Below, in pieces: positions 4,934-63,244 of a DNA stretch of 63,346 nucleotides; positions within the stretch are counted from its first letter, which is position 1; each line of letters opens with the position of its first letter. Under the pieces are notes generated by a model, which had not been told where the DNA came from, ran no database searches, and worked only from the letters and a program-made list of their open reading frames with translations. The position numbers and the translations under genes are program-made. Origin of the DNA: Spirochaetaceae bacterium (GTDB taxonomy: Bacteria; Spirochaetota; Spirochaetia; DSM-27196; PWMO01); contig JBKHCS010000005.1 in assembly GCA_046541715.1 (NCBI GenBank), positions 1-63,346 on the forward strand. Reading direction: 5' to 3'.

Positions 4934-7900
4934 CGCCGGCGAAAAGCACGCCTCGACGATAAGATGGGGTAATCCTTCGCCCCGTTCCACCCGGCCGGAG
5001 ACCCCCAAGAACGAAGAGCTCAGAATGATGTTCCGGTGCTCTTCGAAGGTTTGTCGCCGGATGACGAGATTCACAAAGCCGCTCTCGTCCTCCAGGGTGA
5101 TAAACACGGTACCGCCGGCGGTATCCGGCCGCTGCCTGCAGATCACGAGCCCCGCGTAGCTTACACGACTTCCTTCCGGAGACGACCGGAGTGTTTGGGC
5201 GTCGGGGAATCCCTGGTCCGTAAGCTCACTGCGGTAAGGCTCCAAGGGGTGACCGGTGGTGCTGTGGGCACCCCAGGTATAGTCCCACCGGATTTCGTCG
5301 GCCCGGCTCAAGAGGGGAAGCTCGACCGGCTCGGTTCCCAGATCGAAGGCGTTTGCCGGCACCCCACTCCCGGCTCCCCCGGAGACGCCCCAGAGGGCCT
5401 CCCGGCGCTCCCTTCCAAAGCACCCAAGGGCACCGCTTTGCGCCAGGGCCGCTAGGGTATCTTGCGGAAGCCGGGTCTCTTGGACGAACGCTTCGAATCG
5501 AGGTGCTTCTCCGGTGCCGGATAGACCTTCGCGGTAGGTGTGGATGCGCTGCCAATCACCCTTTCCGAGTCCCTTGACGAATCGCAAGCCCATCCGAAGG
5601 GCGTACCGAGGCGCGTGGACCCCGGCGTTCCGAGGCCGGGGTAGGCGCAAGCTCTCGGGGACTTGCCTTAAGGGTACCAACCGGCAGTCCCAATCGCTCG
5701 AGAGAAGGTCCATCGGCAGTACCGTAACGCCGTGGCGCTTCGCGTCCTCGACGATGGTAGCCGGTGCGTAGAAGCCCATGGGCCAGGCGTTGAGAAGGGC
5801 GCAGACAAAGACCTCCGGGAAGTGGTAGCGCATCCAGGCGGTACAGTAGGCAATCAAGGCAAAGCTCGCGGCGTGGCTCTCCGGAAAACCATACTCACCG
5901 AATCCCTTAATCTGGTCGAAGACCCGCTTGGCAAACTCCTCCGGGATCCCCTTGGCGACCATCCGGGAGACCAACTTTTCTCCGTGGTGTTCCATACTCC
6001 CGCTTTTTCGCCAGGCTGCCATGTCCCGCCGGAGCTGATCCGCCTCACCGGGGGTATAGTCCGCGGCGACGATTGCCAGTTTCATCACCTGTTCCTGGAA
6101 GAGGGGGACTCCGAGCGTCTTCTTGAGAACCGGCTCCAGCTTGGGGTGAGGGAAGGTGATCGGTTCTTCGCCGTTCCGGCGCCGGAGATAGGGGTGCACC
6201 ATGCCGCCGGTAATGGGCCCCGGCCTGACGATGCTGACCTCGATAACCAAGTCGTAGAAGGTTTTCGGACGTAGACGGGGAAGCATCGCCATTTGGGCCC
6301 GGCTTTCTACCTGAAAAACCCCGACCGTATCCCCCCGGCTGAGCATGCCGAAGACCCCGGCGTCCTTCGCCGGGATGGTAGCCATCGAGAGGTCGACGGC
6401 AAAGTGCTCCTTGAGAAGACGAAAAGAGTAGTCGAGGTGGGTCAAGGCCCCGAGACCGAGGAGGTCTACTTTAAAGAGCCCCATCGCCTCGACATCGTAC
6501 TTATCCCACTGAATAACGGTTCGGCCGGGCATGGTGGCGTTCTCCACCGGGACGATGCGATGCACCGCCTCGCTTCCCAGGAGGAATCCCCCGGGATGAA
6601 TCGAAAGATGCCGGGGGAAGCCGAGAATCTCCCGGCAGAGCCGGCGAAAGAGGGAGACAACCGAGGGGCCGTGCTTTTCCCGGGAAGCGTCTTCCGGCTC
6701 TTCGATAAGCGTCGCAAAGGCCTCCTCCAAGCTGCTGTCCCGGTGGGAGAGGAGCTTGGCCATGCGGTCGAGGGTGGTCTCGGGAAACCCGAGGACCTTC
6801 CCGACGTCCCGGACCGCCGACCGTGGGCGGTAACGAACCAGGTTCGCGACCATGGCCGCCCGGTCCCGACCGTACTTCCGGTACATGTGGGCGATAACCT
6901 CTTCCCGACGGCGGTGCTCGATGTCGAGATCGATGTCCGGTGGCTCCGCCCGTTCTCTGGATAAGAAGCGCTCAAAGAGCAAGTCCATTCGAACCGGGTC
7001 GATCGCCGTAATACCGAGGCAGTAGCACACAGCCGAATTGGCCGCAGAGCCCCGGCCTTGGCAGAGAATACCCTCTTTCCGGCAGTACTCCACCAGGTCC
7101 CACATGGTCAAGAAGTAGCCGCAGTAGTCCAGTTCGCCGATAACTGCAAGCTCTCGTTCGAGTTGGGCGAGAACCGCTTCCGGCACGTGCTCTCCGTAGC
7201 GTTTCTTTGCCCCTTCGTAGGTAAGCTCCCGAAGACGGTTCTCGGTGGTATATCCCCCGGGGAGATGCTCCGAGGGGTAGCGGTAGGTAATCTCGTCCAG
7301 AGAAAAGGTACACTCTGCGGCAATTTCCTCGGTTCTCCGGAGAAGCTCCTCCGATTCCGGATAGCGGTTGCGGATTTCCTCGAGGCTCGGCATGGCGTAG
7401 CTGTCGTTAGGGCGAAGCTCCGTTCCGGTTTCCGTCAGGCGGATACCCCGGCGGATACAGGTAAGGGTGTCTTGGAGCATCTGTCGCTCGGCGTCGTGGT
7501 AGAGAATCTCCGGAAGCGCCACCGCCGGAATTCCCAACAGGTCGGCCACCTCGAGAGCCTCCGACGTGGAGCGCTTCTCCTCCGGGGTGTAGTGCCGGGA
7601 GATACCCAGGTAGAGCTTTCCGGGAAAGCGGGCCTTTAACTCCGGAAAGAAGACCTTCGGCGGCGGAGGGTTTCCGGAAGAAGCCTCCGGAAGGTCCGGC
7701 GGCAAGATAACGGCGATAAGGTCCCTCCCGTGGTCGCAGATCTCCTGCAATTCTACCGAGCTTTCCCCCTTAGGGCTCCGCATACGTCCTCTGCTAATGA
7801 GGGTCGAGAGGTCTCCGTAGCCGGAGGCATTCTTTACTAGGAGCAAGAGGGAATGAGCCTCTTTGACGGTAATTTGGGAACCGACGATCAGCTTTATTCC

Positions 7901-8077
7901 GTATTCCTTTGCGGCGAGATGGCCCCGGACCACACCGTAAAGCCCGTCGAGATCGGTTATTGCGACGGCGGGTAGGCCAAACCTCCCGGCGGTTTCCACC
8001 AACTCCTCCGGAGTACTCGCCCCGATGAGGAAGGAGTGGTTGCTCTTGCACCAGAGGGGAACGTAGCCGGAGCTCAT
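4889..8077 (-). CDS. dnaE2: Error-prone DNA polymerase III alpha-like subunit DnaE2 (ImuC)
   Basis: ORF trimmed to the ATG at 8077 (MSSGYVPLWCKSNHSFLIGAS, PHP-domain start), which forms an ATGA overlap with the imuB stop. About 1060 aa with a PolIII-alpha core (GRGSAANSAVCYCLGIT, IHPGG, FQVESR). Sits last in an imuA-imuB-dnaE2 order. Confidence 0.9.
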   Translation of the reverse strand: MSSGYVPLWCKSNHSFLIGASTPEELVETAGRFGLPAVAITDLDGLYGVVRGHLAAKEYGIKLIVGSQITVKEAHSLLLLVKNASGYGDLSTLISRGRMRSPKGESSVELQEICDHGRDLIAVILPPDLPEASSGNPPPPKVFFPELKARFPGKLYLGISRHYTPEEKRSTSEALEVADLLGIPAVALPEILYHDAERQMLQDTLTCIRRGIRLTETGTELRPNDSYAMPSLEEIRNRYPESEELLRRTEEIAAECTFSLDEITYRYPSEHLPGGYTTENRLRELTYEGAKKRYGEHVPEAVLAQLERELAVIGELDYCGYFLTMWDLVEYCRKEGILCQGRGSAANSAVCYCLGITAIDPVRMDLLFERFLSRERAEPPDIDLDIEHRRREEVIAHMYRKYGRDRAAMVANLVRYRPRSAVRDVGKVLGFPETTLDRMAKLLSHRDSSLEEAFATLIEEPEDASREKHGPSVVSLFRRLCREILGFPRHLSIHPGGFLLGSEAVHRIVPVENATMPGRTVIQWDKYDVEAMGLFKVDLLGLGALTHLDYSFRLLKEHFAVDLSMATIPAKDAGVFGMLSRGDTVGVFQVESRAQMAMLPRLRPKTFYDLVIEVSIVRPGPITGGMVHPYLRRRNGEEPITFPHPKLEPVLKKTLGVPLFQEQVMKLAIVAADYTPGEADQLRRDMAAWRKSGSMEHHGEKLVSRMVAKGIPEEFAKRVFDQIKGFGEYGFPESHAASFALIAYCTAWMRYHFPEVFVCALLNAWPMGFYAPATIVEDAKRHGVTVLPMDLLSSDWDCRLVPLRQVPESLRLPRPRNAGVHAPRYALRMGLRFVKGLGKGDWQRIHTYREGLSGTGEAPRFEAFVQETRLPQDTLAALAQSGALGCFGRERREALWGVSGGAGSGVPANAFDLGTEPVELPLLSRADEIRWDYTWGAHSTTGHPLEPYRSELTDQGFPDAQTLRSSPEGSRVSYAGLVICRQRPDTAGGTVFITLEDESGFVNLVIRRQTFEEHRNIILSSSFLGVSGRVERGEGLPHLIVEACFSPALSVAPTPVESRDFR

Positions 8078-9537
8078 TGGATGGCTCCCTGGAGCATCCA
8101 ACGCCCGGCCCTTTTGTCGTAGTAGAGCCAGAGGGGGGTGCCCCTGTCGTCGTCGACGTAGTAGTAGGCCCGGTGGTAACTCTTGGACCACCACCCGCCG
8201 CTATAGAGGAAGGGCCCGGCGCTAAAGCTTCCCCGGGGCTCCTCTTTCAAAAGAAGGGGGGAAGCAAGAATCCGCCGGACGACCGTAGGCACTCCGGGAA
8301 TCGCGATCGATTCTTCCGGCTTTCGAGGGAGCAAGCGAAAGCGCGAGAGATCGTCTACCCAGACGTACTGTTCTTCCGGAAGATACCCCATTTGTGTTTG
8401 GGCTACGGCGACGCTCCGGTTGCCGAACTCTGCCTGGATGAGGGAAAAGGCCTTAGTCGCCATAGCCCAGTCGTGACGATGGTTCTCGCCGCCGAAGAGA
8501 GCCCCCTGGGTGTTTCTAGCCTCTCGGGTATCACAACGGAGGCGGACACCTTCTATGCGGCTCGAGAAGGCAAGCCCCCCGAGGCGGAGCCGGAGAAGCC
8601 GGCGAAGGAGAGCCGGCCGGGTGGTGGCCGTGGCAGGGGCAATTTCTTCCAGCTCGGAGGCACCGTCTTCGAAATAGAGTCCGACCCACAGCTTTTGGAC
8701 CGCAAGCCGCGCCTCGGTTACCTCTACGATCAGCCGTTCCAAGAGCTCATCGAGGTGGACCATTATCTCGTCGAGTCCCGAGAGGGGGGCGGTAAGGTTC
8801 TTTGTGTAAGAGAACTCCTGTTCCTCTTCGAGGCTCTGGAAGGGGAGCTCGAGATCCCCGGATGCAAAGTGATAGACCTTGGCGGCCTCGGACCCAAGGC
8901 GCCGGGCAACCTCACTTCCCGGCAGCTGCAAGAAGTCCCGGACGGTGTATAGCCCCAGATCCACCAGGCGCCGGCGGACCTTTGGGGGCAGGGGAAGGAG
9001 CTCTAAAGATGCTCTCGCCGCGGTCCGGCGTTCCTCCAGGGGCTCGTGCAGAAGCGTCGGGGCCGTGCTGCCGGCGGCAACGAGGTAGCTACCGAAGCGG
9101 GAAAACCCGACGGCAATACGCGCATCAAGTCCTTCCTCCTCCAGGGTTTCGACGATTGCGTCCATCCAGGCGGAAAAGGAGTCAAACAACGGAAAGAGGC
9201 CTGCAGCGTCTATCCAGAGCGTTCCCAGGTCGAAGTCGCAGAGCTCGATCTCCGGGGCGAAGCGACGCAGGCGCGCGACAACTCTTCCCCGATGTTCCAC
9301 CAGCAGAGATTCGGAAACGACACCCGCCTGAAGACGGGGCTCCAGGGTAAGCGCCGTGGCGTAGCGCATACCCCGGCGGACACCCCGATCCCTCGCTTTA
9401 CCGTTTATCGAGAGGATATGACCGTTTGGGCTGTCCGCGGATATAACCGCCACGGCCTCCCGGCGCCATGGCGGGTGTTGCATCATGAGGATCTGGAGCG
9501 AAAACTCCGGAAGGTTAACGCAGGCCAATCGGGGCAT
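8074..9537 (-). CDS. imuB: ImuB, Y-family-polymerase-like accessory protein
   Basis: ORF trimmed to the ATG at 9537 (MPRLACVNLPEFSLQILMM, typical ImuB/DinB-like N-terminus). Position between imuA-like and dnaE2. About 487 aa. Confidence 0.8.
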   Translation of the reverse strand: MPRLACVNLPEFSLQILMMQHPPWRREAVAVISADSPNGHILSINGKARDRGVRRGMRYATALTLEPRLQAGVVSESLLVEHRGRVVARLRRFAPEIELCDFDLGTLWIDAAGLFPLFDSFSAWMDAIVETLEEEGLDARIAVGFSRFGSYLVAAGSTAPTLLHEPLEERRTAARASLELLPLPPKVRRRLVDLGLYTVRDFLQLPGSEVARRLGSEAAKVYHFASGDLELPFQSLEEEQEFSYTKNLTAPLSGLDEIMVHLDELLERLIVEVTEARLAVQKLWVGLYFEDGASELEEIAPATATTRPALLRRLLRLRLGGLAFSSRIEGVRLRCDTREARNTQGALFGGENHRHDWAMATKAFSLIQAEFGNRSVAVAQTQMGYLPEEQYVWVDDLSRFRLLPRKPEESIAIPGVPTVVRRILASPLLLKEEPRGSFSAGPFLYSGGWWSKSYHRAYYYVDDDRGTPLWLYYDKRAGRWMLQGAIQ

Positions 9538-10105
9538 GGTAGGTGATACGCCGTCGCCATTGAGGAGCCGCACGCCGGTCCCTTTCGGCGGTCAGGGTTA
9601 AATCGAGGCGCCCCTCGCCGGCAGGCTCGAGGCGGGTATCGAGCCGGAGGGACGTTAAGCTGCCGAAGATGCTCCGGAACGTACCCTTGAGGGCCGAAAG
9701 GGCCACCACTCCACACCGTACCTTTCCCGCGAGCCTCATAAGACGGCCGGCGATACCGTCCGGAATTCCCGGGTGCTTTGACATATCGAGAACAATCAGA
9801 CCAAAGGCCTCGCTCCGGAGAAGATACTCCAGGGCCTTCGTTGCTTTCGTGGGCGTATCGATCCAGAAAAAGGTGAGAAGCGAGAGGTCGACGCCGTTTC
9901 TTTCGAGATCCGGGGGAAAGACGGTGTGGAGGGTCGTCGAAATCCAGCCGCAGAGCTCGCCTTGCTGCTGCGCTTCCGCCAGCAGCGAAGAAACCAGGGA
10001 AAGTTGGCCGGATCCGGAAATTTCTACCAGACTACCGGCTATCCGTCGGTAGCCGAATGTCGGGAGATCCGATGGTGATGGGAGGTCTTTTGCCGGAAGA
10101 AGCAT
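9515..10105 (-). CDS. imuA: ImuA-like (SulA/RecA-fold) cassette protein
   Basis: 196-aa ORF overlapping the imuB start by 23 nt. GSLVEISGSG...LCGWI and LIVLD segments resemble the truncated RecA/SulA fold of ImuA. The call rests mainly on cassette position. Confidence 0.6.
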   Translation of the reverse strand: MLLPAKDLPSPSDLPTFGYRRIAGSLVEISGSGQLSLVSSLLAEAQQQGELCGWISTTLHTVFPPDLERNGVDLSLLTFFWIDTPTKATKALEYLLRSEAFGLIVLDMSKHPGIPDGIAGRLMRLAGKVRCGVVALSALKGTFRSIFGSLTSLRLDTRLEPAGEGRLDLTLTAERDRRAAPQWRRRITYHAPIGLR

Positions 10106-16377: not shown

Positions 16378-16595
16378 CTGAGTCCCTCCTCCTTGGTAGA
16401 ATATAGTAACGCAGGGCCAAGGGTACCCAGCGTTATACGCAGGAACTGTGCCAGGGTTGCGGCAAAAATCGGCCTCTTTCGGGGCAACGGATGGGTAGCC
16501 GTTATCCACTCTTCGGGTGGATGGGTCGAATAGTAACAACCGGCGCCGGTTACTCTGGAAGTGGCGTCCTATTTCTACTAAGCTGTTGCCACCCG

Positions 16596-18131
16596 ATGAG
16601 CAGAGAGAGAGCCAAGATCGTCGCAATAGGTTCCGGTAAGGGTGGGGTCGGGAAATCGACGACGGCGATAAACCTGACGCTTATTCTGGCAAAGAAGGGA
16701 CTCCGGGTCGCCTTGGCAGATCTAGACCCCCTGTCGAATCTGAGGACCATTCTCGACCTTCCGGAGATCGAGGTCACCGGTGACGATTCCCCGCGTCGGA
16801 TCGCGGCATTCCCCCGGGTCGATCTTCTCTATCCGGCTCCGACGCTAAAGGGGGAGGAAACCCGCCGGCAGCGGAGCGACTTCGCCCTTGAGCTCTCCGA
16901 CGGAATGGCCGGACGGTACGACGTAATCCTTCTGGATCTTCCGGCGGGCATCAATGCGGAGGAGAACCTATCGTACTTGCCCTTGGTGTCGCACCTTCTG
17001 GTGGTGGTTCAGCCCGAGCCCACCTCTCTGGTTTCCGCCGGGGGCTACATTCGAGCGGCCTGGGAGATCGATCCCAATCTCCGGATACACCTCTGGTACA
17101 ACAAATTTGCCTTCGAATCTGCCGCCGAGACGCTGACGTCCGGGGTCGTGGAGACCTACAACCGGTACGCACCGGAAGAGCTACAACTCCCCGAAAAGGT
17201 TGGCGACGCGATCTCTGCTCTTGCGTATATCCCGCCGGACCTCGCCTTAGACCTTCTCGAGACGTCGTTTACCCTGGAAGGCCACGCCCTCTACAAGACT
17301 CAAGGAATTCTCTCTTTTCTCTTCGACCGTTTGACCCCGTTACCGAGAGGTCTCGACACCCCGGAGGCCCGACTGATAAAGGCCCGGATGCAGCGGGTGT
17401 ACGTCGTACGGGACGTTGGCGAGACCGCCCGGCGTCTGGTGGCAGAGGGGCCCGAGGGCGTGTCGTTGGAGGGATACGTCGAGACCCTCAAGGCTTTTTC
17501 GGTTCGCCGGCGTACCGGGGCGGCCCTGGAGTTTATTTCCCAGCGGTTGGAAGAGATTCACGGGGCACCGGGTGGTTACGACGCACCGACTGCTTCCCGC
17601 CGGCAACGGCAGGCAGTGGACCTTATTCTTCGGCTCCTCAAAGAGGTCGCCGCTTCTCCCGCGCTGCTGCGAAACAGCGACGTACGCAATTCGGGAGGGG
17701 TGCTCCTGTTCTACCTGGCGGTGCTAAAGCTGCTTTCCCACCGCACCGTCTCCGCCGCGGTAGAAGGGTTTCTTCCGGTTCGAGAGGACGGCCGGAGAAG
17801 CGTCCGGGACCGTCGCAGGCAGATCGCCTTTCTCGTCGAACGGGATGATGAGTATCACCGGCGCTTTTACTCTCTTGTTCAGCGTCTCTTCCCGCTCCTG
17901 ATGAGGCAGACCGCCCGGTTGTCGGACTCCTTCGGCCTCGGCCCCCTGCTTCTCCGGGACGCCTCGGGCGCGGTAAACCGCTCGGCTTACCTAAAGCTGC
18001 TGACCCGATACCTCCACGATACCCTTAACAGCGGGCTTGGTGTCCTCGTCGGACTCACGATGACGCCCGCGGCAGTGGCCTTTTCCAAGGGGGTGGAATC
18101 ATTGCTCGATGAGATGTACCCAAAAAGGTAA
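16596..18131 (+). CDS. MinD/ParA-type P-loop ATPase with an uncharacterised C-terminal extension of roughly 250-300 aa
   Basis: ORF trimmed to the ATG at 16596 (MSRERAKIVAIGSGKGGVGKSTTAINL, deviant Walker A; LADLDP). The C-terminal half (roughly 250-300 residues; the boundary is not sharp) is helical and Arg/Leu-rich, with no motif I recognise. Confidence 0.75.
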   Translation: MSRERAKIVAIGSGKGGVGKSTTAINLTLILAKKGLRVALADLDPLSNLRTILDLPEIEVTGDDSPRRIAAFPRVDLLYPAPTLKGEETRRQRSDFALELSDGMAGRYDVILLDLPAGINAEENLSYLPLVSHLLVVVQPEPTSLVSAGGYIRAAWEIDPNLRIHLWYNKFAFESAAETLTSGVVETYNRYAPEELQLPEKVGDAISALAYIPPDLALDLLETSFTLEGHALYKTQGILSFLFDRLTPLPRGLDTPEARLIKARMQRVYVVRDVGETARRLVAEGPEGVSLEGYVETLKAFSVRRRTGAALEFISQRLEEIHGAPGGYDAPTASRRQRQAVDLILRLLKEVAASPALLRNSDVRNSGGVLLFYLAVLKLLSHRTVSAAVEGFLPVREDGRRSVRDRRRQIAFLVERDDEYHRRFYSLVQRLFPLLMRQTARLSDSFGLGPLLLRDASGAVNRSAYLKLLTRYLHDTLNSGLGVLVGLTMTPAAVAFSKGVESLLDEMYPKR

Positions 18132-18194
18132 CGACCTCGCGTCATGCCGCAGTTTGGGGTATACTAATCTGTCTTTGGGAGGGGACGATCTAGC

Positions 18195-20108
18195 ATGGCT
18201 TCACAGCCGGACCTCGAAGCTAAACTAGGGCGTATTCCGAACTGGCGCAGCGTCTCCTTTAAGAGCAATATTCTCGCAAGCCTCGACAGAGTCCTCGACG
18301 ACGGTGAGGAGATAGAGGACCTCCTCGAGGGTTTCTATCGAGGGGACCATATTGTTTCCTCCGGGTCCGGCGCCCCGGGAATTCTCTGTTTGACGAGCGA
18401 CCGCTTGATATTCCTCTTGAGCGGTGGGAGCAAAGGGATCTGCGACGTTATCGCATTCGAGGATATCGATACCCTCCGCGCCAAACGGCGGGAGACGACG
18501 ACCAAGATTACAATCCTCCACAAAGGTGGAGAGAGTATCCTTACGTCGACCAAGAGGGCAGGGCAGGCCCGTTCCTTTTTACAGAAACTCGAGGAACACC
18601 TCGATAGCGACCGGGTTGCTGCGGAGGTAGACGTCGGTTCCGGCGACAACGGAGTCCCCGAGGCTGATCGCCTGGAGAACCTCGCTTTTCTCCATCAAGA
18701 AGCGCGGAAGATCATCGAGACGGTAAACGAGTACAAGCAGTTCAACAAGGAGCCGACCTTTCTTTCCCGGCTGATCGACGATGTCTTCGGCGTGATGCGG
18801 GCGAGCCTCAAAGGGGTCCCCCGGCAGGTGGAGGAGACACGCCTCTTTGTTTCGATGGTCTTTTCCTACCTCCGGCAGGACGTCGTTCAAGACCGGGAGC
18901 TGGTCCTCGACATCTTGCGTTACGATAGCCTCCCGTTAAAGCATCGCCGGAAGCTTCTGGGATACTGGGATTCGATTTTCAACTCGATTCAGAAGACCGG
19001 GAGGCGCGACCCAAAGGAGTTGCCGGCCCTTGCTTACCTCAAGGAGTACGACTCCCGGGAGAATACGCGGCATTTCGACCGGGTTGCCGCGGTACTCTTG
19101 AGTTTATCTCAGTTGATCGTCAAGGCCGACGGCAGCGTATCGGACCAAGGTACCGAGACCCTCAAGCGTATACGGGAGTTGATCTACGGCGAGGAGGCGA
19201 CGAAGGCTGCGGCCGCCCGGCAGGTCGCAAAATCCCCCCAGAAGAGACAGGTCGGTCAGGCTGTCGCGGAAGAAAGTCTAGAGGAAGTTCTCGAGCGTAT
19301 CGACGGGCTTATCGGAATGAACCGGGTAAAAGAGCAGATCTATACCTTCGTGAACTTTATGAAGGTGCACAAAGAGAGGGAGCGACGAAACCTACCGGTT
19401 ACACCAATTTCGAAGCATGCGGTGTTCTACGGCCCTCCGGGAACCGGAAAGACAACCATCGCGAGGTATCTCGGAAAGGTCTACCGGTGCCTCGGGTTGC
19501 TCGAAAAGGGGCACCTTGTGGAAACCGACCGGGCCGGTTTGGTCGCCGGGTATGTCGGTCAAACGGCGATCCAAGTCGACGAAATCGTCCAGGAGGCCCT
19601 CGACGGTGTCCTCTTCGTCGACGAAGCCTACACCCTGAGCCCCGAAGGGACTGGGAACGATTTCGGTCAGGAAGCCGTGGATACCCTCCTGAAGCGCATG
19701 GAGGATTTCCGGGACCGACTTGTCGTGATCGTGGCCGGCTATCCGGACGAGATGCACCGCTTTATCGACAGCAATCCCGGACTCAAGTCGCGGTTTAGCC
19801 GCTACTTTTTCTTCGATCACTACGAGCCGGACAATCTCTTGGCGATTCTCGACCTCTTTCTCGAAGGTGCCCGACTTACTCTTACGCACCCCGCCCGCCG
19901 GGAGGCGCGGAATCTTCTCGTTCACTTCTACCGCCGCAGGGATAAGAGCTTCGGTAACGGTCGATTCGTCCGCAATCTCTTCGAACGCATCGTGGAGAAG
20001 CAGGCGAACCGGATTTCGACGGTTTCGCCGCTTACCGACGAGGTTCTCTGCTCTATCACCAAGCCGGATATTCCGACGATAGAAGAGTGCAGCACCACGA
20101 TTATGTGA
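18195..20108 (+). CDS. AAA+ ATPase of CbxX/CfxQ/SpoVK type with N-terminal bacterial-PH-like and central TerB-like segments
   Basis: GPPGTGKTT (Walker A), VLFVDEAYTL (Walker B), VIVAGYPDEM. N-terminus GILCLTSDRLIFLLSG...ITILHKGGE is bPH-like. Centre LSLSQLIVKADGSVSDQGTETLKRIRELIYG is TerB-like. Confidence 0.85.
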   Translation: MASQPDLEAKLGRIPNWRSVSFKSNILASLDRVLDDGEEIEDLLEGFYRGDHIVSSGSGAPGILCLTSDRLIFLLSGGSKGICDVIAFEDIDTLRAKRRETTTKITILHKGGESILTSTKRAGQARSFLQKLEEHLDSDRVAAEVDVGSGDNGVPEADRLENLAFLHQEARKIIETVNEYKQFNKEPTFLSRLIDDVFGVMRASLKGVPRQVEETRLFVSMVFSYLRQDVVQDRELVLDILRYDSLPLKHRRKLLGYWDSIFNSIQKTGRRDPKELPALAYLKEYDSRENTRHFDRVAAVLLSLSQLIVKADGSVSDQGTETLKRIRELIYGEEATKAAAARQVAKSPQKRQVGQAVAEESLEEVLERIDGLIGMNRVKEQIYTFVNFMKVHKERERRNLPVTPISKHAVFYGPPGTGKTTIARYLGKVYRCLGLLEKGHLVETDRAGLVAGYVGQTAIQVDEIVQEALDGVLFVDEAYTLSPEGTGNDFGQEAVDTLLKRMEDFRDRLVVIVAGYPDEMHRFIDSNPGLKSRFSRYFFFDHYEPDNLLAILDLFLEGARLTLTHPARREARNLLVHFYRRRDKSFGNGRFVRNLFERIVEKQANRISTVSPLTDEVLCSITKPDIPTIEECSTTIM

Positions 20109-54881: not shown

Positions 54882-56348
54882 TTAGGCGTCGGTGCGTCTA
54901 AGTTCGGCCAGGCGGGCGTCGATTTTGTCCAAGAAGTCCCGGGCGAAGGGGGGCGCCGTGGTGAAGAGGCTGACACCGACAAAGAGCAGGGTCGAAAGGC
55001 CAAGTCCCCACACGCTCGGCCAAACCCCGAGGGGATACCAACCGGTGGCATACAGCAGCGCGGTGCCGAGGCCGGCGACGATCACCGACGTCAAGGCGCC
55101 GGCGGCGGTTCCCCGGGCCCAGAAGAAAGCGCCGATTATCGCCGGGGCCGCGACCAGGAGACCCCCGGACGCCATGCTCGAGAGCACCGTAATCAGCCCC
55201 GGGCGCAGGTAGGCGAAGCCGATACACGCGAGGAGAAGCAGGAGCATCGCCCCTCGGCCGATACCGGTCTCCCGCTCTTCCGAGAGCCCCGGCCGGAGGG
55301 TCTTCGCCACGTCCCGGGCAAAGAGGGAGCTCAGGGTAAGGACGATGGAACCCAGGGTCGAGCTGGCCGCCGCAAAGATCCCGATAAACAATAATAGTGC
55401 CAGTCCAACCGGCACCGTAGTCAAGAGAGCCGGCATCGCTCCGTCGGGGTTTTCGAGTCCCGGGAGAATCGCCGCGGCCTGAAAACCGTAGAGCGTGGTG
55501 ATTAGGGTATAGACGAGACCGAAACCCGAAAAATAGAGGATCATCCTGCGGATGTTCGCAATCCGGTCGGGCACGAAGAGCCGCTGAGACACCTGGGGGT
55601 TCGTCAGGGCGAAAAAGGACCAGGGCAGGGTGATGCCGAGGAAGAAATTGATGTCCCACTGGATGGTGAGTAGCTCCGAATAGTCGAGGCTAATGGTCTC
55701 GAAGAAACCGCCGAGCCCCCCAAAGTAGCGAACCGCCACAACGATAAACACCAGAATCGCCGTGGTAAGCATGGTTACCCCCTGGACGGCATCCGTCCAG
55801 GCAACGCTCCGCATTCCGGCCCACAGCGAGGTAATCCCCGCGACGCCGGCCATTACGACGACCCCGGCCATGTAGGGAATTTCCCCCCCGGTGAGGCCCT
55901 CGACCAGGAGCCCGGCACCGATCAGCTGTACGGCGGAGTAGGGAATAAGCATTACGAAGGCCAGAAGGGCCGTCGCCGTTCCAACTTCCGGGCTGTCGTA
56001 CCGCTTGGCAAGAAGCTCACTCGGCGTAACGAGGTCGTACATCTGTCCGGCAAACCAGAAGCGCGGGGCAAAAACTACCAGGAAGAAAACGGTAAAGAGC
56101 AGGTAGGTCATCTCGAAACCGAGGGCCGCGACCCCGAAGCGGTAAGAAAGCCCGACGAGCCCCACCAGCATAAAGGCGCTATAGGTCGTTGCTGCGTAAG
56201 TCATTCCCGAGAGAAAACCCCGGAGGCGCCGGCCACCGATAAAATACTCCGAGGATCCGGCCCGAAGACCCTTTCGAGATGCCCGCGCTACGAGAGCCGT
56301 GACCAGGGTCCAGAAGGCGATTGCTCCCCAAACATAGAAGGGGTTCAT
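54882..56348 (-). CDS. Sodium:solute symporter (SSS family)
   Basis: 488 aa with about 13 TM segments. N-terminal region EYFIGGRRLRGFLSGMTYAATTYSAF is typical of SSS transporters. Confidence 0.85.
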   Translation of the reverse strand: MNPFYVWGAIAFWTLVTALVARASRKGLRAGSSEYFIGGRRLRGFLSGMTYAATTYSAFMLVGLVGLSYRFGVAALGFEMTYLLFTVFFLVVFAPRFWFAGQMYDLVTPSELLAKRYDSPEVGTATALLAFVMLIPYSAVQLIGAGLLVEGLTGGEIPYMAGVVVMAGVAGITSLWAGMRSVAWTDAVQGVTMLTTAILVFIVVAVRYFGGLGGFFETISLDYSELLTIQWDINFFLGITLPWSFFALTNPQVSQRLFVPDRIANIRRMILYFSGFGLVYTLITTLYGFQAAAILPGLENPDGAMPALLTTVPVGLALLLFIGIFAAASSTLGSIVLTLSSLFARDVAKTLRPGLSEERETGIGRGAMLLLLLACIGFAYLRPGLITVLSSMASGGLLVAAPAIIGAFFWARGTAAGALTSVIVAGLGTALLYATGWYPLGVWPSVWGLGLSTLLFVGVSLFTTAPPFARDFLDKIDARLAELRRTDA

Positions 56349-56527
56349 TACCTATGGCTCCAGGGACGCATATAAAAGGCGGCCGCAATTATTCCGAGGC
56401 CCGGAAGAATAGTCCAGAGAAAAAAGCTCCCCATAAACGACGCGGTGTCCCGGAGATAGAGATACGGAATCGCGATATCCACCAGAACCAGGAAGACGCC
56501 GATCGCCAGGAACATTTTTCCCTTCAT
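56348..56527 (-). CDS. Small 2-TM membrane protein preceding the symporter (DUF3311-like)
   Basis: Not in the ORF track (59 aa). My translation is MKGKMFLAIGVFLVLVDIAIPYLYLRDTASFMGSFFLWTILPGLGIIAAAFYMRPWSHR. Its TAA overlaps the symporter ATG (TAATG). Confidence 0.6.
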   Translation of the reverse strand: MKGKMFLAIGVFLVLVDIAIPYLYLRDTASFMGSFFLWTILPGLGIIAAAFYMRPWSHR

Positions 56528-56565: not shown

Positions 56566-56601
56566 CGGTTTTAGCTATCCGAGCGGTTTTAACTATCCGA
56601 C
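56566..56601. repeat. Head-to-tail 18-nt tandem repeat (2 copies, 16/18 identical)
   Basis: CGGTTTTAGCTATCCGAG (56566-56583) directly followed by CGGTTTTAACTATCCGAC (56584-56601). The second copy covers the ParA stop codon. Confidence 0.85.
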
Positions 56602-57365
56602 GGTGTGTTCCGGTTCTTCGGCAGCGAAAGAAGCACCGCCGTCTCCTCCCAAAGCTGCCGAAACGCCAAGGACGCCTTCGCTTTCGGGTTCGAAACGACG
56701 ACGGGCTCCCTGGTTACGCCCATCTTTTCGACCACCGAGGCGTACGGAACGACCGCCGTGATACGCCCCCCGGCCAACGCGACGACCCGGGGGATCAAAT
56801 CACGGTGGAGTTTCTTGCGAACGTCGGCCATCGACACGAAGGGATGGAATCTCTCCCGTGACAGCTTTTGTTTTTCGGCGACCCGAAGGATTTGCTCGAA
56901 CGCGTTAATGGAAAGAACGGACGGAATAACCGGTACGAGCGCCAGATCCGCCGCCCGGATGAGATTCTCGCCTTCCAGTCCAATGGACGGCGGAGCGTCG
57001 ATGACCAAGAGGTCGTACCGCTTACCGAAACCCGCGAAGGAAAGGGAGATTCTCTTTTTCGTGTGACTCTCTTTCGCTAGCTCTCGGTCGAGACGACGAT
57101 ACGATAGCGCAGCCGGAAGAAGGTCCAAATTGCGATAATCGCTCTCGCGAACGCTGTCTCGGAGTCGCTTGCCTCCCCGAAGCAGCGTTCGTACGTTCAG
57201 GCCCTTCGGCGGCCGCACGCGGAGGTAGAAACTGGTGGCCCCCTGCGGGTCGAGGTCGCACAGAAGCGTCCGATAACCGGCCTCGGCCGCGAGATACGCA
57301 AGGTTTACCGCGGCGGCCGTCTTCCCGACGCCTCCCTTGAGGTTATAGAGCGTAAGGGTCTTCAC
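56589..57365 (-). CDS. ParA-family P-loop ATPase (orphan, no adjacent ParB)
   Basis: GTG start in a GTGA overlap with the upstream stop. MKTLTLYNLKGGVGKTAAAVNLA (deviant Walker A), LLCDLDPQG, LLVIDAPPS. Confidence 0.9.
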   Translation of the reverse strand: MKTLTLYNLKGGVGKTAAAVNLAYLAAEAGYRTLLCDLDPQGATSFYLRVRPPKGLNVRTLLRGGKRLRDSVRESDYRNLDLLPAALSYRRLDRELAKESHTKKRISLSFAGFGKRYDLLVIDAPPSIGLEGENLIRAADLALVPVIPSVLSINAFEQILRVAEKQKLSRERFHPFVSMADVRKKLHRDLIPRVVALAGGRITAVVPYASVVEKMGVTREPVVVSNPKAKASLAFRQLWEETAVLLSLPKNRNTPSDS

Positions 57366-58903
57366 TTCCGCTTCTCCTTTGCCGGTATAAGCCGCCTGCG
57401 GGCGGCCGCGATCTGTCTCCGGTAGGTTTTGACTCGGGCGTCGATCCCGTCCATGAAGGCGTTGCTTTCCTCCGAAAGGGTCGACACCAAGGCGCCGATG
57501 GCGGCCGCCACCCGGGGTTGCGTGGTCTCGTCACCATGAATGATCGCAAGTAGGCTCTCTTGCTGCACCGCAACGTCCTGGAGCCTGCCAAGGGCGTCTT
57601 GAAATCTCTTTAGCTCCCGGATTGCGCGGTCTACGGATTTCTCCGGGTACACCGGCGACACTGCCTCCAAGAGGTAGCGAAGCTTCTTGCACTCTATCCG
57701 AACACGATGCCTCGCGATCTCGGACGCGTCCGCCCCGGAGAGAGAAACCAAACCTTTCTCTACGCGTCTCAATCGCCGTGAAAGGCTTCGGTCCGCCGAT
57801 TTACGCAAGGTGTCTCCCGCGGGACCGGCTCCAAGTGCTTCGATGAGGGCTTCGATGCGGTTGATCTCCCACTCGTACTCTTGGCCGGCGAGGTACTCTT
57901 TCAGCTCACGATAGCGGATCGCTCGCTCTTCGGCCGCCCGGCGGAAGTAGGAATCGATGCCCTCGCGCAATTCCGGGGGAACTCGTTTCGTGTAGGACTG
58001 CCGACATAGCAGCAGGACGTCGAGATCCCGAAGTGGACCCGTGGCGGAGGCGACGACTTTAAGGCGTCGAGAAAGCTCTCGGAAGATCGCTGTGTCGACG
58101 GCAGATCGGAACTCCGGCAGCAGCGATCGCATGCGACGAAGGGCCACGCGATAGTCGTGGAGGAACTCGCTGTCCGTGTCCGCTATAATGCCCCCTTCGT
58201 TTTGTCGTATTACCGCGAGATTGGCTGCGAGAAGATCGGCAAGCGCCCGGCCGGCGCTGGTTTCCGGCGTAAGTGGAACGACAGGGCGGGAGCAATAGGC
58301 GTCCGGCCCTCGCCCATGCCATCCGGCGGCCGCGGCGACGATGGAACCCGGTGATTCGGATCGTACTGCTCCGTTCGCCCGGGCAAAAAGCTCGGCAACG
58401 TCCCGGTCGTACCCCCGGAGAGGAAACACCAGCAGAAACCGGGCCCCTCCTTCGTTCCCCGTAGCGGACCTTACCTCCTCCAGCTCCACCCGGGCGATGG
58501 TCTTTCGGTTGTCGTCCTCGATCCTTCCCCGTCGCCGAAGAATCGTCGCAGTGCCAACCTGCCCGAGGGCCCGTAAGGCGAGCGTCTTCTCTAGAATACC
58601 TCGAAGCGGAGAAGGCAGTTCCCACGGCAGAAGCCCTTCGAGCCGTTCAGGTGTCGGCCCGTTGTAACGTATACGTTCTCCGTTGACTTCACGAAGGAAC
58701 AGCCGACCGTCGTGACTCTCGAGGGCGTACCCCCCGTTGAACAGGCGAAAATCGAAGGTATCGTAATACTCGATACGCTCCCGATGTCCATCGTCGAGAA
58801 CGATCCTGCAATCGTCTCCGAGAACCTGGTGTTCTACCGAGGCATCGAGGATTCGGTAGACCAGGAGAACCCGCCGCTCTTCCGGAGGCCGGGGGCACGT
58901 CAT
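57362..58903 (-). CDS. CYTH-like + CHAD domain protein
   Basis: ORF trimmed to the ATG at 58903 (ATGA overlap with the upstream stop). N-terminal half IEYYDTFDFRLF...ARVELEEV is CYTH-like. C-terminal half has His/Arg-rich helices LHDYRVALRRMRS, HRVRIECKKLRYLLE and LKRFQDALGRLQD, as in CHAD. Confidence 0.75.
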   Translation of the reverse strand: MTCPRPPEERRVLLVYRILDASVEHQVLGDDCRIVLDDGHRERIEYYDTFDFRLFNGGYALESHDGRLFLREVNGERIRYNGPTPERLEGLLPWELPSPLRGILEKTLALRALGQVGTATILRRRGRIEDDNRKTIARVELEEVRSATGNEGGARFLLVFPLRGYDRDVAELFARANGAVRSESPGSIVAAAAGWHGRGPDAYCSRPVVPLTPETSAGRALADLLAANLAVIRQNEGGIIADTDSEFLHDYRVALRRMRSLLPEFRSAVDTAIFRELSRRLKVVASATGPLRDLDVLLLCRQSYTKRVPPELREGIDSYFRRAAEERAIRYRELKEYLAGQEYEWEINRIEALIEALGAGPAGDTLRKSADRSLSRRLRRVEKGLVSLSGADASEIARHRVRIECKKLRYLLEAVSPVYPEKSVDRAIRELKRFQDALGRLQDVAVQQESLLAIIHGDETTQPRVAAAIGALVSTLSEESNAFMDGIDARVKTYRRQIAAARRRLIPAKEKRK

Positions 58904-59463
58904 TTCCGATCCTCCAGGGACGGAGGCTTCGTCGTAGAACTGAGCCCGAGTCGCGCGCGAACCAATTCGACGCCGCCTCCGCATTCTCTTACACGCCGGG
59001 CAAAACTATTCCGAAGAACCGACGGCGTAACCGAAACAGCGACCCCTGCTTCCCTTCCGTATCTGGCGAGAAACTCTCGTACGTAGCGGTTCTTAAGCTT
59101 GTTACCCTGCAAAGTGGTAAAGACCAAGAGGCTGTCGCTCTGTGGCCGGACATAGATCCATTTTTTCAAAAGCGCTATCGTTTCGTCGCAGAGAGGTACC
59201 CGGCGTTCACCGTGGCGACGGGCGACGATCGCGTTTTCGTCCCATAGAATATCTCCGATTTGAAGGCCCCCTTGTTCCTCGGGCCGCGAAAACCCGTCCC
59301 GGACGGTTTCCTTCCCAACTAATTCCGATATCTTTAGGCCACCTTCGATAAGAATACGCATGATAGCTGCGTTCCGCAGGCCGGTTCGGGTGTGGATTTT
59401 CGGCATCGACAGAAGGCGGTCGCATTCTTCTTTAGTCAAGAACTTCCTGGGTGGTTTATTCAT
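58900..59463 (-). CDS. Tyrosine-recombinase catalytic-fold protein lacking catalytic residues and the N-terminal core-binding domain
   Basis: 187 aa. LTKEECDRLL, GLRNAAIMRILIEGGLKISELVG, ERRVPL, VTPSVLRNSFA and RLGLSSTT align to XerC/D box I/II. However, Arg-I is Lys, HxLRH reads SVLRN, and there is no Tyr nucleophile. Confidence 0.65.
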   Translation of the reverse strand: MNKPPRKFLTKEECDRLLSMPKIHTRTGLRNAAIMRILIEGGLKISELVGKETVRDGFSRPEEQGGLQIGDILWDENAIVARRHGERRVPLCDETIALLKKWIYVRPQSDSLLVFTTLQGNKLKNRYVREFLARYGREAGVAVSVTPSVLRNSFARRVRECGGGVELVRARLGLSSTTKPPSLEDRK

Positions 59464-59493
59464 GTACCAAGTAAATTCGGAATTATTAGGTGG

Positions 59494-59521
59494 ATCTTAA
59501 CACTATACTTACATAAGTCAA
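59494..59521 (-). promoter_or_regulatory. Sigma70-like promoter TTGACT-N16-TAAGAT for the recombinase-fold/CHAD/ParA operon
   Basis: Minus-strand TTGACT = 59521-59516 and TAAGAT = 59499-59494, in the A/T-rich divergent gap 59464-59549. A + strand TATACT (59504-59509) may serve plsC. Confidence 0.4.
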
Positions 59522-59549
59522 GCATTTTCGGTACTGTTGAGCGCCGATT

Positions 59550-63173: not shown

Positions 63174-63244
63174 AGCGACCGATGGGAATCGAACCCACAT
63201 CACCAGCTTGGAAGGCTGGGGTAATGCCATTATACGACGGTCGC
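63174..63244 (-). tRNA. tRNA-Gly: tRNA-Gly (anticodon UCC)
   Basis: Folded by hand. Acceptor GCGACCG/CGGTCGC, D-loop AATGGCA, anticodon stem CCAGC/GCTGG with loop CTTCCAA, T-arm GTGGG-TTCGATT-CCCAT, discriminator U. 71 nt, CCA not encoded. Confidence 0.9.

Follow-up and report, generated by a model that had tools for sequence, protein, structure and literature searches.

A possible ParA-type positioning system for polyphosphate granules in a Spirochaetaceae bacterium, with a CHAD protein as candidate adaptor and a recombinase-derived protein as candidate regulator

The DNA analysed here, called the window below, is a stretch of 63,346 nucleotides from an uncultured Spirochaetaceae bacterium of a microbial mat (contig JBKHCS010000005.1 of assembly GCA_046541715.1, positions 1-63,346). 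Three open reading frames (ORFs) follow each other head to tail on its minus strand: ORF1, which encodes a protein with a tyrosine-recombinase fold and a dead active site; ORF2, which encodes a protein with a CHAD domain; and ORF3, which encodes a ParA-type ATPase. With moderate confidence, and by way of sequence comparison, structure models and analogy, we regard this trio as a ParA positioning system for polyphosphate (polyP) granules, in which the CHAD protein would be the cargo adaptor and ORF1 a recombinase-derived regulator that binds the operator. The CHAD gene followed by the ParA gene is an ancient, widespread two-gene module, which is only rarely joined by the recombinase-like gene.

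According to the ORF calls, the raw sequence and the domain assignments described below, the locus is built as follows.

58900-59463, minus strand: ORF1, 187 aa, a tyrosine-recombinase fold consisting of the catalytic domain only, with K44, S148, R151 and L174 at active-site positions and no Tyr
57362-58903, minus strand: ORF2, 513 aa
58289-58903, minus strand: N-terminal domain of ORF2 (about aa 1-205), a β-barrel resembling the triphosphate tunnel metalloenzymes (TTM/CYTH-like) and lacking the ExExK motif (AlphaFold2, Foldseek)
57362-58258, minus strand: C-terminal long CHAD domain of ORF2 (aa 216-513 and the stop codon), a predicted polyP-binding module
56589-57365, minus strand: ORF3, 258 aa, with a GTG start on the ORF2 stop codon, a ParA/Soj-type deviant-Walker-A ATPase

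The translational coupling that had been proposed for the trio can be read directly in the raw sequence. ORF1 and ORF2 share an ATGA overlap at 58903-58900, ORF2 and ORF3 share a GTGA overlap at 57365-57362, and the ribosome-binding sites GGAGG and AGGAG lie 5' of ORF2 and ORF3. The longest possible ORF2 would begin at 58984 and comprise 540 aa. As the closest homologues are exactly 513 residues long, the coupled position 58903 is taken to be the true start.

The CHAD-ParA gene pair

Homologues of ORF3 at 45-50% identity number in the thousands and are found across phyla. A scan from the ParA side was made with one genome per species, and the best 80 ParA relatives among the matches listed (38-48% identity) were followed up by calling the ORFs of the 80 loci and searching them with phmmer and with a hidden Markov model built from the matches. 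A CHAD gene is present near the ParA gene in 71 of these loci, 67 of which have it directly upstream in the same orientation. The two genes overlap by 4 bp in 35 of the 67 upstream cases and by 1 bp in four, and most of the others are separated by a gap of 22 bp or less. The 80 loci represent about 17 phylum- or class-level groups: Calditrichota, Dadabacteria, many Desulfobacterota, Poribacteria, KSB1, Binatia, Chlorobiaceae, Dormibacterota, Beta-, Gamma- and Alphaproteobacteria, Actinomycetota, Lentisphaerota, Entotheonella, Latescibacterota, Chloroflexota, Rhodothermales and Verrucomicrobiota. Because the flanking genes vary from locus to locus, the linkage of CHAD and ParA is functional and does not reflect shared synteny. 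Judged by this linkage, the CHAD protein is the obligate co-translated partner of ParA, and the association of the two that the original prediction had drawn from a single locus is borne out. In two loci the CHAD gene follows the ParA gene and in two it is convergent to it (L020, L044, L053 (Candidatus Binatia), L047 (Entotheonella)); the pairing is kept in these loci, and the gene order is not universal.

The surroundings of the module frequently contain a recurrent set of genes related to phosphate and polyP metabolism. Of the 80 loci, 15 have PPK1 within the 6-kb flanks, 16 a catalytic CYTH gene and seven a NUDIX gene. Inspection of single loci revealed the order PPK1-CHAD-ParA-CYTH-NUDIX, with PPK1 directly upstream (L009), the order CYTH-CHAD-ParA in a Verrucomicrobiota metagenome-assembled genome (MAG; L010), and a metagenomic ParA-CYTH fusion protein, P0101, whose gene is preceded by a CHAD gene (L011). 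In Paracoccus marcusii CP157, the RefSeq annotation gives pstA-pstB-phoU-phoB followed by CHAD, an 'AAA family ATPase', CYTH, NUDIX and a further CYTH gene. Extended modules in which a CYTH gene (with EIERKF) and a NUDIX gene follow ParA are located at L009:7735-8615, L083:6747-7178 and L107 (pCP157_03) 7026-8507.

ORF2 is, by profile and by model, a bona fide long CHAD protein and a predicted polyP binder. The Pfam CHAD profile (PF05235) matches it with an E-value of 4e-52 (177.8 bits, against a cut-off of 25.6), and its CHAD domain aligns with that of Chlorobium tepidum (CtCHAD, 6qv7) with an E-value of 1e-39. The AlphaFold2 model has a predicted local distance difference test score (pLDDT) of 92, and Foldseek superposes it on the CtCHAD-polyP complex 6qva and on 6qv7, which have a fold of two four-helix bundles, with a template-modelling (TM) score of 0.88. 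Both polyP binding and localisation to granules have been demonstrated for CtCHAD and the phosins of R. eutropha, and mutations of H253, R256, R260, R296, R418, Y419, R438 and K441 lower the binding of polyP by CtCHAD (PMC6537752). All of these residues are kept in ORF2, as H249, R252, R256, R292, R409, Y410, R429 and K432. In an alignment of 61 sequences six of the positions are invariant and K432 is nearly invariant; R429 is assigned from the pairwise alignment with CtCHAD only.

The N-terminal domain of ORF2 is related by Foldseek to thiamine triphosphatases, GBAA_1210 and YgiF with a probability of 1.0, and the TM scores are modest (0.41-0.55, target-normalised). The Pfam CYTH profile stays below its cut-off on ORF2 (E-value 0.039, 14.2 bits against 23.2); the Phage_integrase, CHAD and AAA_31/CbiA profiles, which were searched along with it, all matched their expected ORFs. 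The ExExK motif is absent from ORF2 and from its 60 homologues, and the stand-alone CYTH genes that accompany related modules all carry EIERKF. The lack of this motif in every member suggests that the domain, though CYTH-like in fold, is probably no triphosphatase. The earlier description of ORF2 as a CYTH-like domain joined to a CHAD domain thus stands for the CHAD part, and for the CYTH-like part it is supported by the predicted fold only.

ORF3 is, judging from its sequence, a complete Soj-like ATPase of the ParA type. Pfam AAA_31 matches it with an E-value of 9e-32 (110.9 bits) and CbiA matches as well. The Walker A motif LKGGVGKT occupies residues 9-16 with the signature lysine at K10, D37 and D39 belong to Walker A', and D123 to Walker B; K10, D37, D39 and D123 are invariant in a 48-sequence alignment of the family. 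The best solved relatives are ParA and Soj proteins (8ray, 1wcv and 2bek; E-values of 2e-18 for 8ray and 1e-15 for Thermus Soj), which come ahead of FleN, MinD and McdA (6non, 5e-8). R183 is nearly invariant and aligns with the arginine of the 'DxR' ('M.D.R') segment of Soj, which we take to be the non-specific DNA-binding R189 of B. subtilis Soj. This arginine and the family membership suggest that ORF3 would bind the nucleoid in an ATP-dependent manner. No NCBIfam cut-off is reached, the ParA_partition model giving 84.4 bits against 180. A Pfam scan of 50 window ORFs found no ParB-type domain, none was called beside the ParA genes of the related loci, and no parS site was identified. ORF3 therefore appears, as had been proposed, as a deviant-Walker-A ParA with no ParB nearby and not as one half of a ParAB pair.

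The same gene linkage could also be explained if ParA were not a positioner at all. ORF3 and its relatives might work with the CHAD protein in polyP metabolism, as an ATP-dependent regulator or as an assembly factor, for example in nucleation, granule size or the access of PPK1 and polyphosphatase. The tight linkage of the module to PPK1, CYTH, NUDIX and pst-phoU-phoB and the existence of the ParA-CYTH fusion would fit such a role, as would the nine close ParA relatives, out of the 80 listed, that have no adjacent CHAD gene; FleN and BcsQ are ParA/MinD relatives that act as regulators or scaffolds. The closest solved relatives of ORF3, however, are the nucleoid-binding Soj and ParA proteins and not FleN or BcsQ, the arginine position of Soj-type DNA binding is kept as R183, and the obligate partner is a binder of the granule surface rather than an enzyme. 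We consider this alternative unlikely, and we favour the positioning of polyP granules as the probable role of the CHAD-ParA pair, by analogy with cargo-positioning ParA systems.

The recombinase-like protein and the upstream TACCGAA sites

The Pfam Phage_integrase profile (PF00589) matches residues 7-176 of ORF1 with an E-value of 6e-16 (59.1 bits, cut-off 27.1), as expected from the earlier assignment of this protein to the catalytic domain of XerC/D-type recombinases. The NCBIfam XerA, XerD and XerC models match with their C-terminal halves only and remain far below cut-off. The match starts at residue 7, which corresponds to residue ~109 of XerD, and full-length Xer proteins have about 100 extra N-terminal residues; in the alignment to XerD and the family the N-terminal core-binding domain is absent from ORF1. 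The AlphaFold2 model (pLDDT 86, predicted TM score 0.84) superposes in Foldseek on XerA (5hxy; E-value 6e-11, TM 0.74) and on other Xer, Int and Cre structures, in support of the recombinase fold. The phage repressor SroF is a weaker match (TM 0.57-0.61).

Alignment to XerD, XerA and members of the family shows how the active site has been altered. Arg-I is replaced by K44 (GGLKISE), Lys-beta by R82/R83, His-II by S148 and His-III by L174 (LGLS). Arg-II is kept as R151 (SVLRN). The tyrosine is absent, and the chain stops 13 residues past LGL. Since the alignment restores neither the tyrosine nor Arg-I, ORF1 is not an ordinary integrase, and the claim that its active site is dead agrees with the residues found. 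The substitutions are common to nine clusters at 90% identity (152-205 aa), the exception being one non-conserved Tyr in P0008; proteins that cluster at 90% identity or above are named as Spirochaetota MAG proteins. The ratio of nonsynonymous to synonymous substitutions (dN/dS) is 0.12-0.17 for ORF1, 0.14-0.23 for ORF2 and 0.09-0.12 for ORF3. ORF1 is thus a gene under purifying selection and no remnant. A frameshifted integrase was considered and rejected: the extension in the frame of ORF2, AQFYDEAS, would place its Tyr about five residues after LG and not 11, in overlap with the STT codons, and homologues back the 513-aa start of ORF2.

These data bear on the most conventional explanation of the locus, in which ORF1 would be a decaying integrase remnant, ORF3 a partition ParA with its ParB encoded elsewhere, and the adjacency of the CHAD gene incidental. 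A tRNA-Gly(TCC) gene lies at 63174-63244 (minus strand), 3.7 kb from ORF1, and the close orthologues of ORF1 all share one neighbourhood, with the acyltransferase on one side and the SSF transporter on the other. As this whole neighbourhood is shared, the synteny alone cannot separate functional linkage from inheritance, and distant relatives are needed. However, no integrase-associated island features are found between the tRNA-Gly gene and ORF1, so that nothing points to an integration site at ORF1, and the Pfam scan of the 50 window ORFs found no phage, insertion sequence or ParB genes around the trio, the region being ordinary chromosome. The frame of ORF1 is intact in at least nine clusters with the low dN/dS given above, three further trios occur in unrelated contexts, the CHAD-ParA adjacency holds in 67 of the 80 listed species genomes, and the score of ORF3 for the partition ParA model (84 against 180 bits) is low. 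The remnant-integrase and ParAB explanation is largely refuted and can hardly be maintained.

ORF1-like proteins are rare. A HMMER search of 1.84 billion representative proteins found only six clusters at E-values of 1e-30 or below, and no ORF1-like ORF was detected in 83 other CHAD/ParA loci, even at E-values up to 1. The next relatives, P0286, P0288, P0289, P0290 and P0292, are 32-40% identical to ORF1 and likewise short; they have Lys at Arg-I, Ser at His-II and a loop insert after box I, but keep LGH and the Tyr. P0286, P0288 and P0290 are each encoded directly upstream of a CHAD-ParA pair, in neighbourhoods that differ from one another (a GGDEF-EAL protein with DHDPS; a PIN toxin pair with a metallo-beta-lactamase; a short contig). 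The search of other genomes for the adjacency thus returned the full trio in three unrelated contexts, in addition to the far more common pair. Of the two adaptors that had been suggested, comparative genomics speaks for the CHAD protein and against the recombinase-like protein as a general adaptor, given its absence from the 83 other loci. A metagenome scan with the profile of the recombinase-like proteins gave only eight loci: one member of the clade, on the short contig L099, and otherwise ordinary Xer-type recombinases. P0291 has an intact active site and adjoins an AbiEi-like gene instead of a CHAD gene. P0287 (L098:286-1050) belongs to the clade with Lys at Arg-I, on a contig too short to show a CHAD gene downstream; it has a C-terminal Cys-rich extension of about 60 aa (CTHC...CENC), possibly a zinc ribbon, and a TACCGAA inverted repeat upstream.

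The CHAD-linked clade has Lys or Asn in place of Arg-I and Ser in place of His-II throughout. As the distant CHAD-linked relatives have lost Arg-I and His-II yet keep LGH and Tyr, it is likely from the sequences that these two residues were lost first, and that His-III, Tyr and the C-terminal helix were lost later in the Spirochaetota lineage of the window. In this clade a tyrosine recombinase would then have been exapted step by step as a DNA-binding protein, its core-like site being retained. Pairwise identities among the modules linked to a recombinase-like gene are 41-55% for ParA and 23-35% for CHAD, no higher than to modules that lack the gene. A single recent acquisition of the recombinase-like gene is unsupported, the linked ParA and CHAD proteins forming no tighter identity group.

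The DNA upstream of ORF1 contains the following elements.

59494-59521, minus strand: sigma-70-type promoter TTGACT-N16-TAAGAT (consensus scan, 9/12 matches, TG before the -10 hexamer)
59522-59534, minus strand: site 1, GTACCGAAAATGC, a TACCGAA half-site abutting the -35 hexamer
59471-59483, minus strand: site 2, ATTCCGAATTTAC, a TACCGAA-type half-site in the 5' leader, about 10 nt downstream of the -10 hexamer

The promoter is present where it had been predicted. By count it is statistically weak, the consensus scan finding two promoter-like sites where 0.9 are expected. Both hexamers are, however, kept in four orthologous loci, and because the synonymous sites of these loci are saturated (dS 1.6-2.7), their conservation represents a phylogenetic footprint. 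The letters shared by five orthologous loci are TTGAC at -35 and GTTAnnAT at -10. Site 1 is the sole exact match to RTACCGAAWWYGC in the 63-kb window and is invariant in the orthologous loci L001, L002, L006 and L007. Site 2 is a direct repeat of site 1 at a distance of 51 bp, and the spacing is 49-51 bp in all orthologous loci. In the lineage of the window, the promoter is thus bracketed by two direct copies of RTACCGAAWWYGC.

TACCGAA was found in 10/10 of the regions examined upstream of recombinase-like genes. In the distant relatives L092, L094, L098 and L099 it occurs as an inverted repeat, ACTACCGAA-N(5-11)-TTCGGTAGT, just upstream of the recombinase-like gene, and in L096 as one copy.

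L092, 5922-5950: AACTACCGAA-N9-TTCGGTAGTT
L094, 1414-1449: AGTTTACTACCGAA-N8-TTCGGTAGTAAACT
L098, ~240-275: TACTACCGAA-N11-TCGGTAGTA
L099, 370-398: TACTACCGAAAA-N5-TTTTCGGTAGTA
L096: TACCGAA, one copy

The arms of the inverted repeats (10-14 bp) and their spacers (5-11 bp) have the geometry of a recombinase core site. Distant relatives have one such core-like repeat upstream; in the window, the half-sites are two direct copies at a distance of 51 bp, and a partner site is lacking. The inverted repeat does not occur elsewhere among the 106 loci compared, and the TACCGAA 7-mer is found upstream of just one of 64 CHAD genes that have no recombinase-like gene, with a background of 0.117 per kb. 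Since the motif is kept although the proteins of the loci that bear it are only 38-47% identical, it is best explained as the binding site of the recombinase-like proteins themselves. A reading of the inverted repeat as an RNA hairpin is disfavoured, as the copies in the lineage of the window are direct repeats, one of them upstream of the -35 hexamer and outside the transcript.

These comparisons suggest that ORF1 keeps site-specific DNA binding. The co-occurrence of the motif, the position of the sites and the precedent of the repressors MrpR and SroF (see below) indicate that it probably binds the TACCGAA sites at the operon promoter and regulates the operon, presumably as an autorepressor.

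The inverted repeats could also be taken as a sign that the recombinase-like proteins have stayed enzymatically active, at least in those clades in which the Tyr is kept, as a promoter switch of the FimB/FimE kind or as nicking or topoisomerase-like enzymes, ORF1 being a recent loss-of-function derivative. P0286, P0288 and P0290 keep Arg-II, LGH and Tyr, their repeats have the core geometry described, FimB and other short recombinases need no large N-terminal domain for activity, and an NCBIfam DNA invertase family matches ORF1 with an E-value of 2.9e-8. Yet Lys or Asn at Arg-I and Ser at His-II run through the whole CHAD-linked clade; the Arg-I change from R to K is the substitution present in the Tn1549 integrase crystallised with DNA (6en2), where it presumably inactivates catalysis. 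With a single core-like site per locus there is neither a partner site nor an invertible segment, and the lineage of the window remains under purifying selection although it has no Tyr, His-III or C-terminal helix. Retained enzymatic activity is accordingly very improbable in our estimation, and ORF1 is treated below as a DNA-binding regulator.

A more far-reaching role for the sites would be that of a centromere. ORF1 and the TACCGAA site might form an analogue of ParB and parS, centromere binder and autorepressor in one, which would tie ParA and the CHAD-coated granules to a chromosomal locus. The layout of cis-acting site, site-specific DNA-binding protein and ATPase mirrors the type Ib and type II plasmid partition cassettes, and in such partition cassettes centromere and promoter overlap. 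The motif is always found together with the recombinase-like gene, and the trio is kept in unrelated genomic contexts. The trio would then be a three-part partition machine for an inorganic polymer, in which polyP granules are coupled to a chromosomal locus and segregate with it, and the two-gene form a general, hitherto unrecognised positioning system for polyP granules in many bacterial phyla; we hold this extended proposal to be quite unlikely. At least 67 CHAD-ParA modules do without a recombinase-like gene, the loci have one or two sites each and no arrays, the 63-kb window contains no further exact sites, and positions over the -35 hexamer and the region of the transcription start are well suited to simple repression. 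The centromere role itself is rated as equally doubtful, and the regulation of the operon by ORF1 is preferred.

Proposed positioning of polyP granules

By combining the domain identities, the predicted folds, the loss of residues in ORF1, the conservation of contacts in ORF2, the gene linkage and the co-occurrence of the motif, all of which were established in the analysis, we infer the protein-protein, protein-DNA and cell-biological steps of the favoured positioning system as follows. Dimers of ATP-bound ParA would coat the nucleoid, as in the ParABS and McdAB systems. The CHAD protein would coat polyP granules by means of its basic CHAD domain. With another surface, possibly the degenerate TTM-like N-terminal domain, it might stimulate ATP hydrolysis by ParA, in analogy to ParB and McdB. 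The granules would then follow the gradients of ParA, become evenly spaced and pass to both daughter cells. ORF1 would recognise the TACCGAA sites flanking the promoter and regulate the operon, probably as an autorepressor.

Several observations weigh against this proposal. The nine listed ParA loci without a CHAD gene have already been mentioned, and no ppk1, CYTH or NUDIX genes were found in the 63-kb window. A conserved basic N-terminal peptide, as in known partners of ParA, was considered as the ParA-stimulating motif of the CHAD proteins and rejected, nothing convincing being present in the alignment of the family. The DNA of the window was found in DNA sequencing runs from microbial-mat metagenomes only, and no RNA runs containing its sequence were found. 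A factor other than ORF1 could bind the TACCGAA sites, and as the lineage of the window has direct instead of inverted repeats, the binding mode would differ from that in the distant relatives. In P. aeruginosa the spacing of polyP granules is explained by AlgP, independently of ParA (PMC9239181), and in S. elongatus the localisation of polyP is independent of the only ParA-family ATPase of this organism (PMC13556221).

For the spacing and inheritance of polyP granules in bacteria, the coupled CHAD-ParA pair is a concrete candidate. If the proposal is correct, the CHAD phosins gain a function beyond polyP binding. Cultured carriers of the module are Paracoccus marcusii, Nitrosomonas europaea, Sedimenticola, Marinospirillum and Acidithiobacillus; Chlorobaculum tepidum is probably another, as judged from the literature and from related Chlorobiaceae.

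Relation to described systems and chromosomal setting

The closest parallel is the McdA-McdB system of carboxysomes. There, too, a small ParA-type ATPase without ParB is encoded next to the binder of a cytoplasmic cargo that is membraneless or proteinaceous, and the proposed mechanism, a diffusion ratchet on the nucleoid, would be the same. In contrast to McdA-McdB, the cargo here would be polyP granules, the putative adaptor is a CHAD/TTM-like protein unrelated to McdB, the adaptor gene comes first and is translationally coupled to that of the ATPase, and ORF3 is nearer to Soj than to McdA. With ParABS the trio shares a deviant Walker A ParA and a cis-acting repeat at the operon promoter with a presumed dedicated DNA-binding protein. 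It differs from ParABS in that no ParB-domain protein was found among the 50 window ORFs scanned, no parS was identified, and the cut-off for partition ParA is missed; its constant partner is the CHAD protein, and the presumed DNA-binding protein, of recombinase fold, is present in a small minority of modules only.

CtCHAD (Q8KE09; 3E0S, 6QV7, 6QVA) has the same architecture as ORF2. Both proteins are about 510-520 aa long with a long CHAD domain in the C-terminal 300 residues, which in Q8KE09 is described as residues 207-522. The aligned CHAD domains are about 30% identical (Foldseek), with the E-value of 1e-39 and the conservation of validated polyP contacts reported above. Identities of 49-65% to the ParA-adjacent CHAD proteins of eight Chlorobiaceae make it very probable that CtCHAD is a member of the ParA-linked CHAD family. 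It was studied only as an isolated polyP-binding domain, however, and the publication does not discuss the N-terminal domain or a link to ParA and names neither an ATPase nor a partition gene (PMC6537752). The E. coli tripolyphosphatase YgiF likewise has a TTM-like N-terminal domain followed by CHAD, and the whole ORF2 model aligns to it (5a60). YgiF combines a catalytic TTM with a short CHAD, whereas ORF2 has no ExExK and a long CHAD with a central pore (PMC6537752).

MrpR (YopR, from SPbeta) and SroF (from phi3T) are repressors with a recombinase fold that bind repeated DNA elements sequence-specifically and have lost recombination (PMC10516654; 10.1101/2025.11.27.690993). ORF1 resembles them in its tyrosine-recombinase fold and in the loss of catalytic residues, and the co-occurrence of the motif makes it a candidate for operator binding as well. 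They are lysogeny repressors of phages with about 300 aa and both domains, unlike ORF1, which is chromosomal and has the catalytic domain only. Since the TM score of ORF1 to SroF (0.57-0.61) is lower than that to Xer (0.74), the relationship is one of analogy and not of common descent.

A conserved ppk-parA-CHAD cluster has been drawn for Acidithiobacillus, in which parA was called a chromosome or plasmid partition gene and no role was proposed (PMC6416229; PMC10892726). The three gene families are those of the CHAD-ParA modules described here. No recombinase-like gene was reported for that cluster, and neither the breadth across phyla nor the translational coupling was described (PMC6416229; PMC10892726). 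The original prediction had held that no system of this composition was described. In the literature searched, this is correct as far as a functional proposal for the ParA is concerned, but not with regard to the gene cluster, which had been drawn (PMC6416229, PMC10892726). According to a study from 2026, it is not defined how polyP is localised in E. coli and Caulobacter (PMC13556221), polyP does not appear among the cargos in a ParA/MinD review and a multi-cargo study (PMC11407121, PMC10241942), and a review of polyP chromatin discusses ParA for carboxysomes and DNA only. In the literature searched, the scope of which leaves most subscription journals outside, CHAD-ParA is undescribed as a system. 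What is new, by analogy with the known cases, would be a new cargo and a new adaptor for positioning by ParA/MinD proteins, together with a new example of an exapted recombinase fold.

On the chromosome, the trio has as neighbours, by Pfam, a divergent acyltransferase gene and genes for a DRTGG protein, an APH-family kinase, a histidine phosphatase, a small membrane protein with an SSF symporter, a 2-hydroxyacid dehydrogenase and an RND efflux pump. The genes of the membrane protein (59 aa) and the SSF-family symporter (488 aa), at 54882-56527 on the minus strand, begin 61 bp after ORF3 with no predicted terminator between, and may be co-transcribed with the trio. All orthologous loci keep this pair in synteny; the distant trios lack a counterpart. 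At 16491-20108 (plus strand), the gene of a second, much longer ParA/MinD-like P-loop protein (546 aa), which CbiA, AAA_31 and MipZ match at the N-terminus only, is followed by that of a 637-aa AAA+ ATPase, and downstream lie a HAMP-adenylate/guanylate cyclase gene and several ORFs without a Pfam match. At 4889-9573 (minus strand), an IMS/ImuB-like Y-family gene (499 aa) lies upstream of the gene of a DnaE-type polymerase alpha subunit (1101 aa) and overlaps with it, an arrangement that resembles the damage-inducible imuB-dnaE2 mutagenesis cassette.

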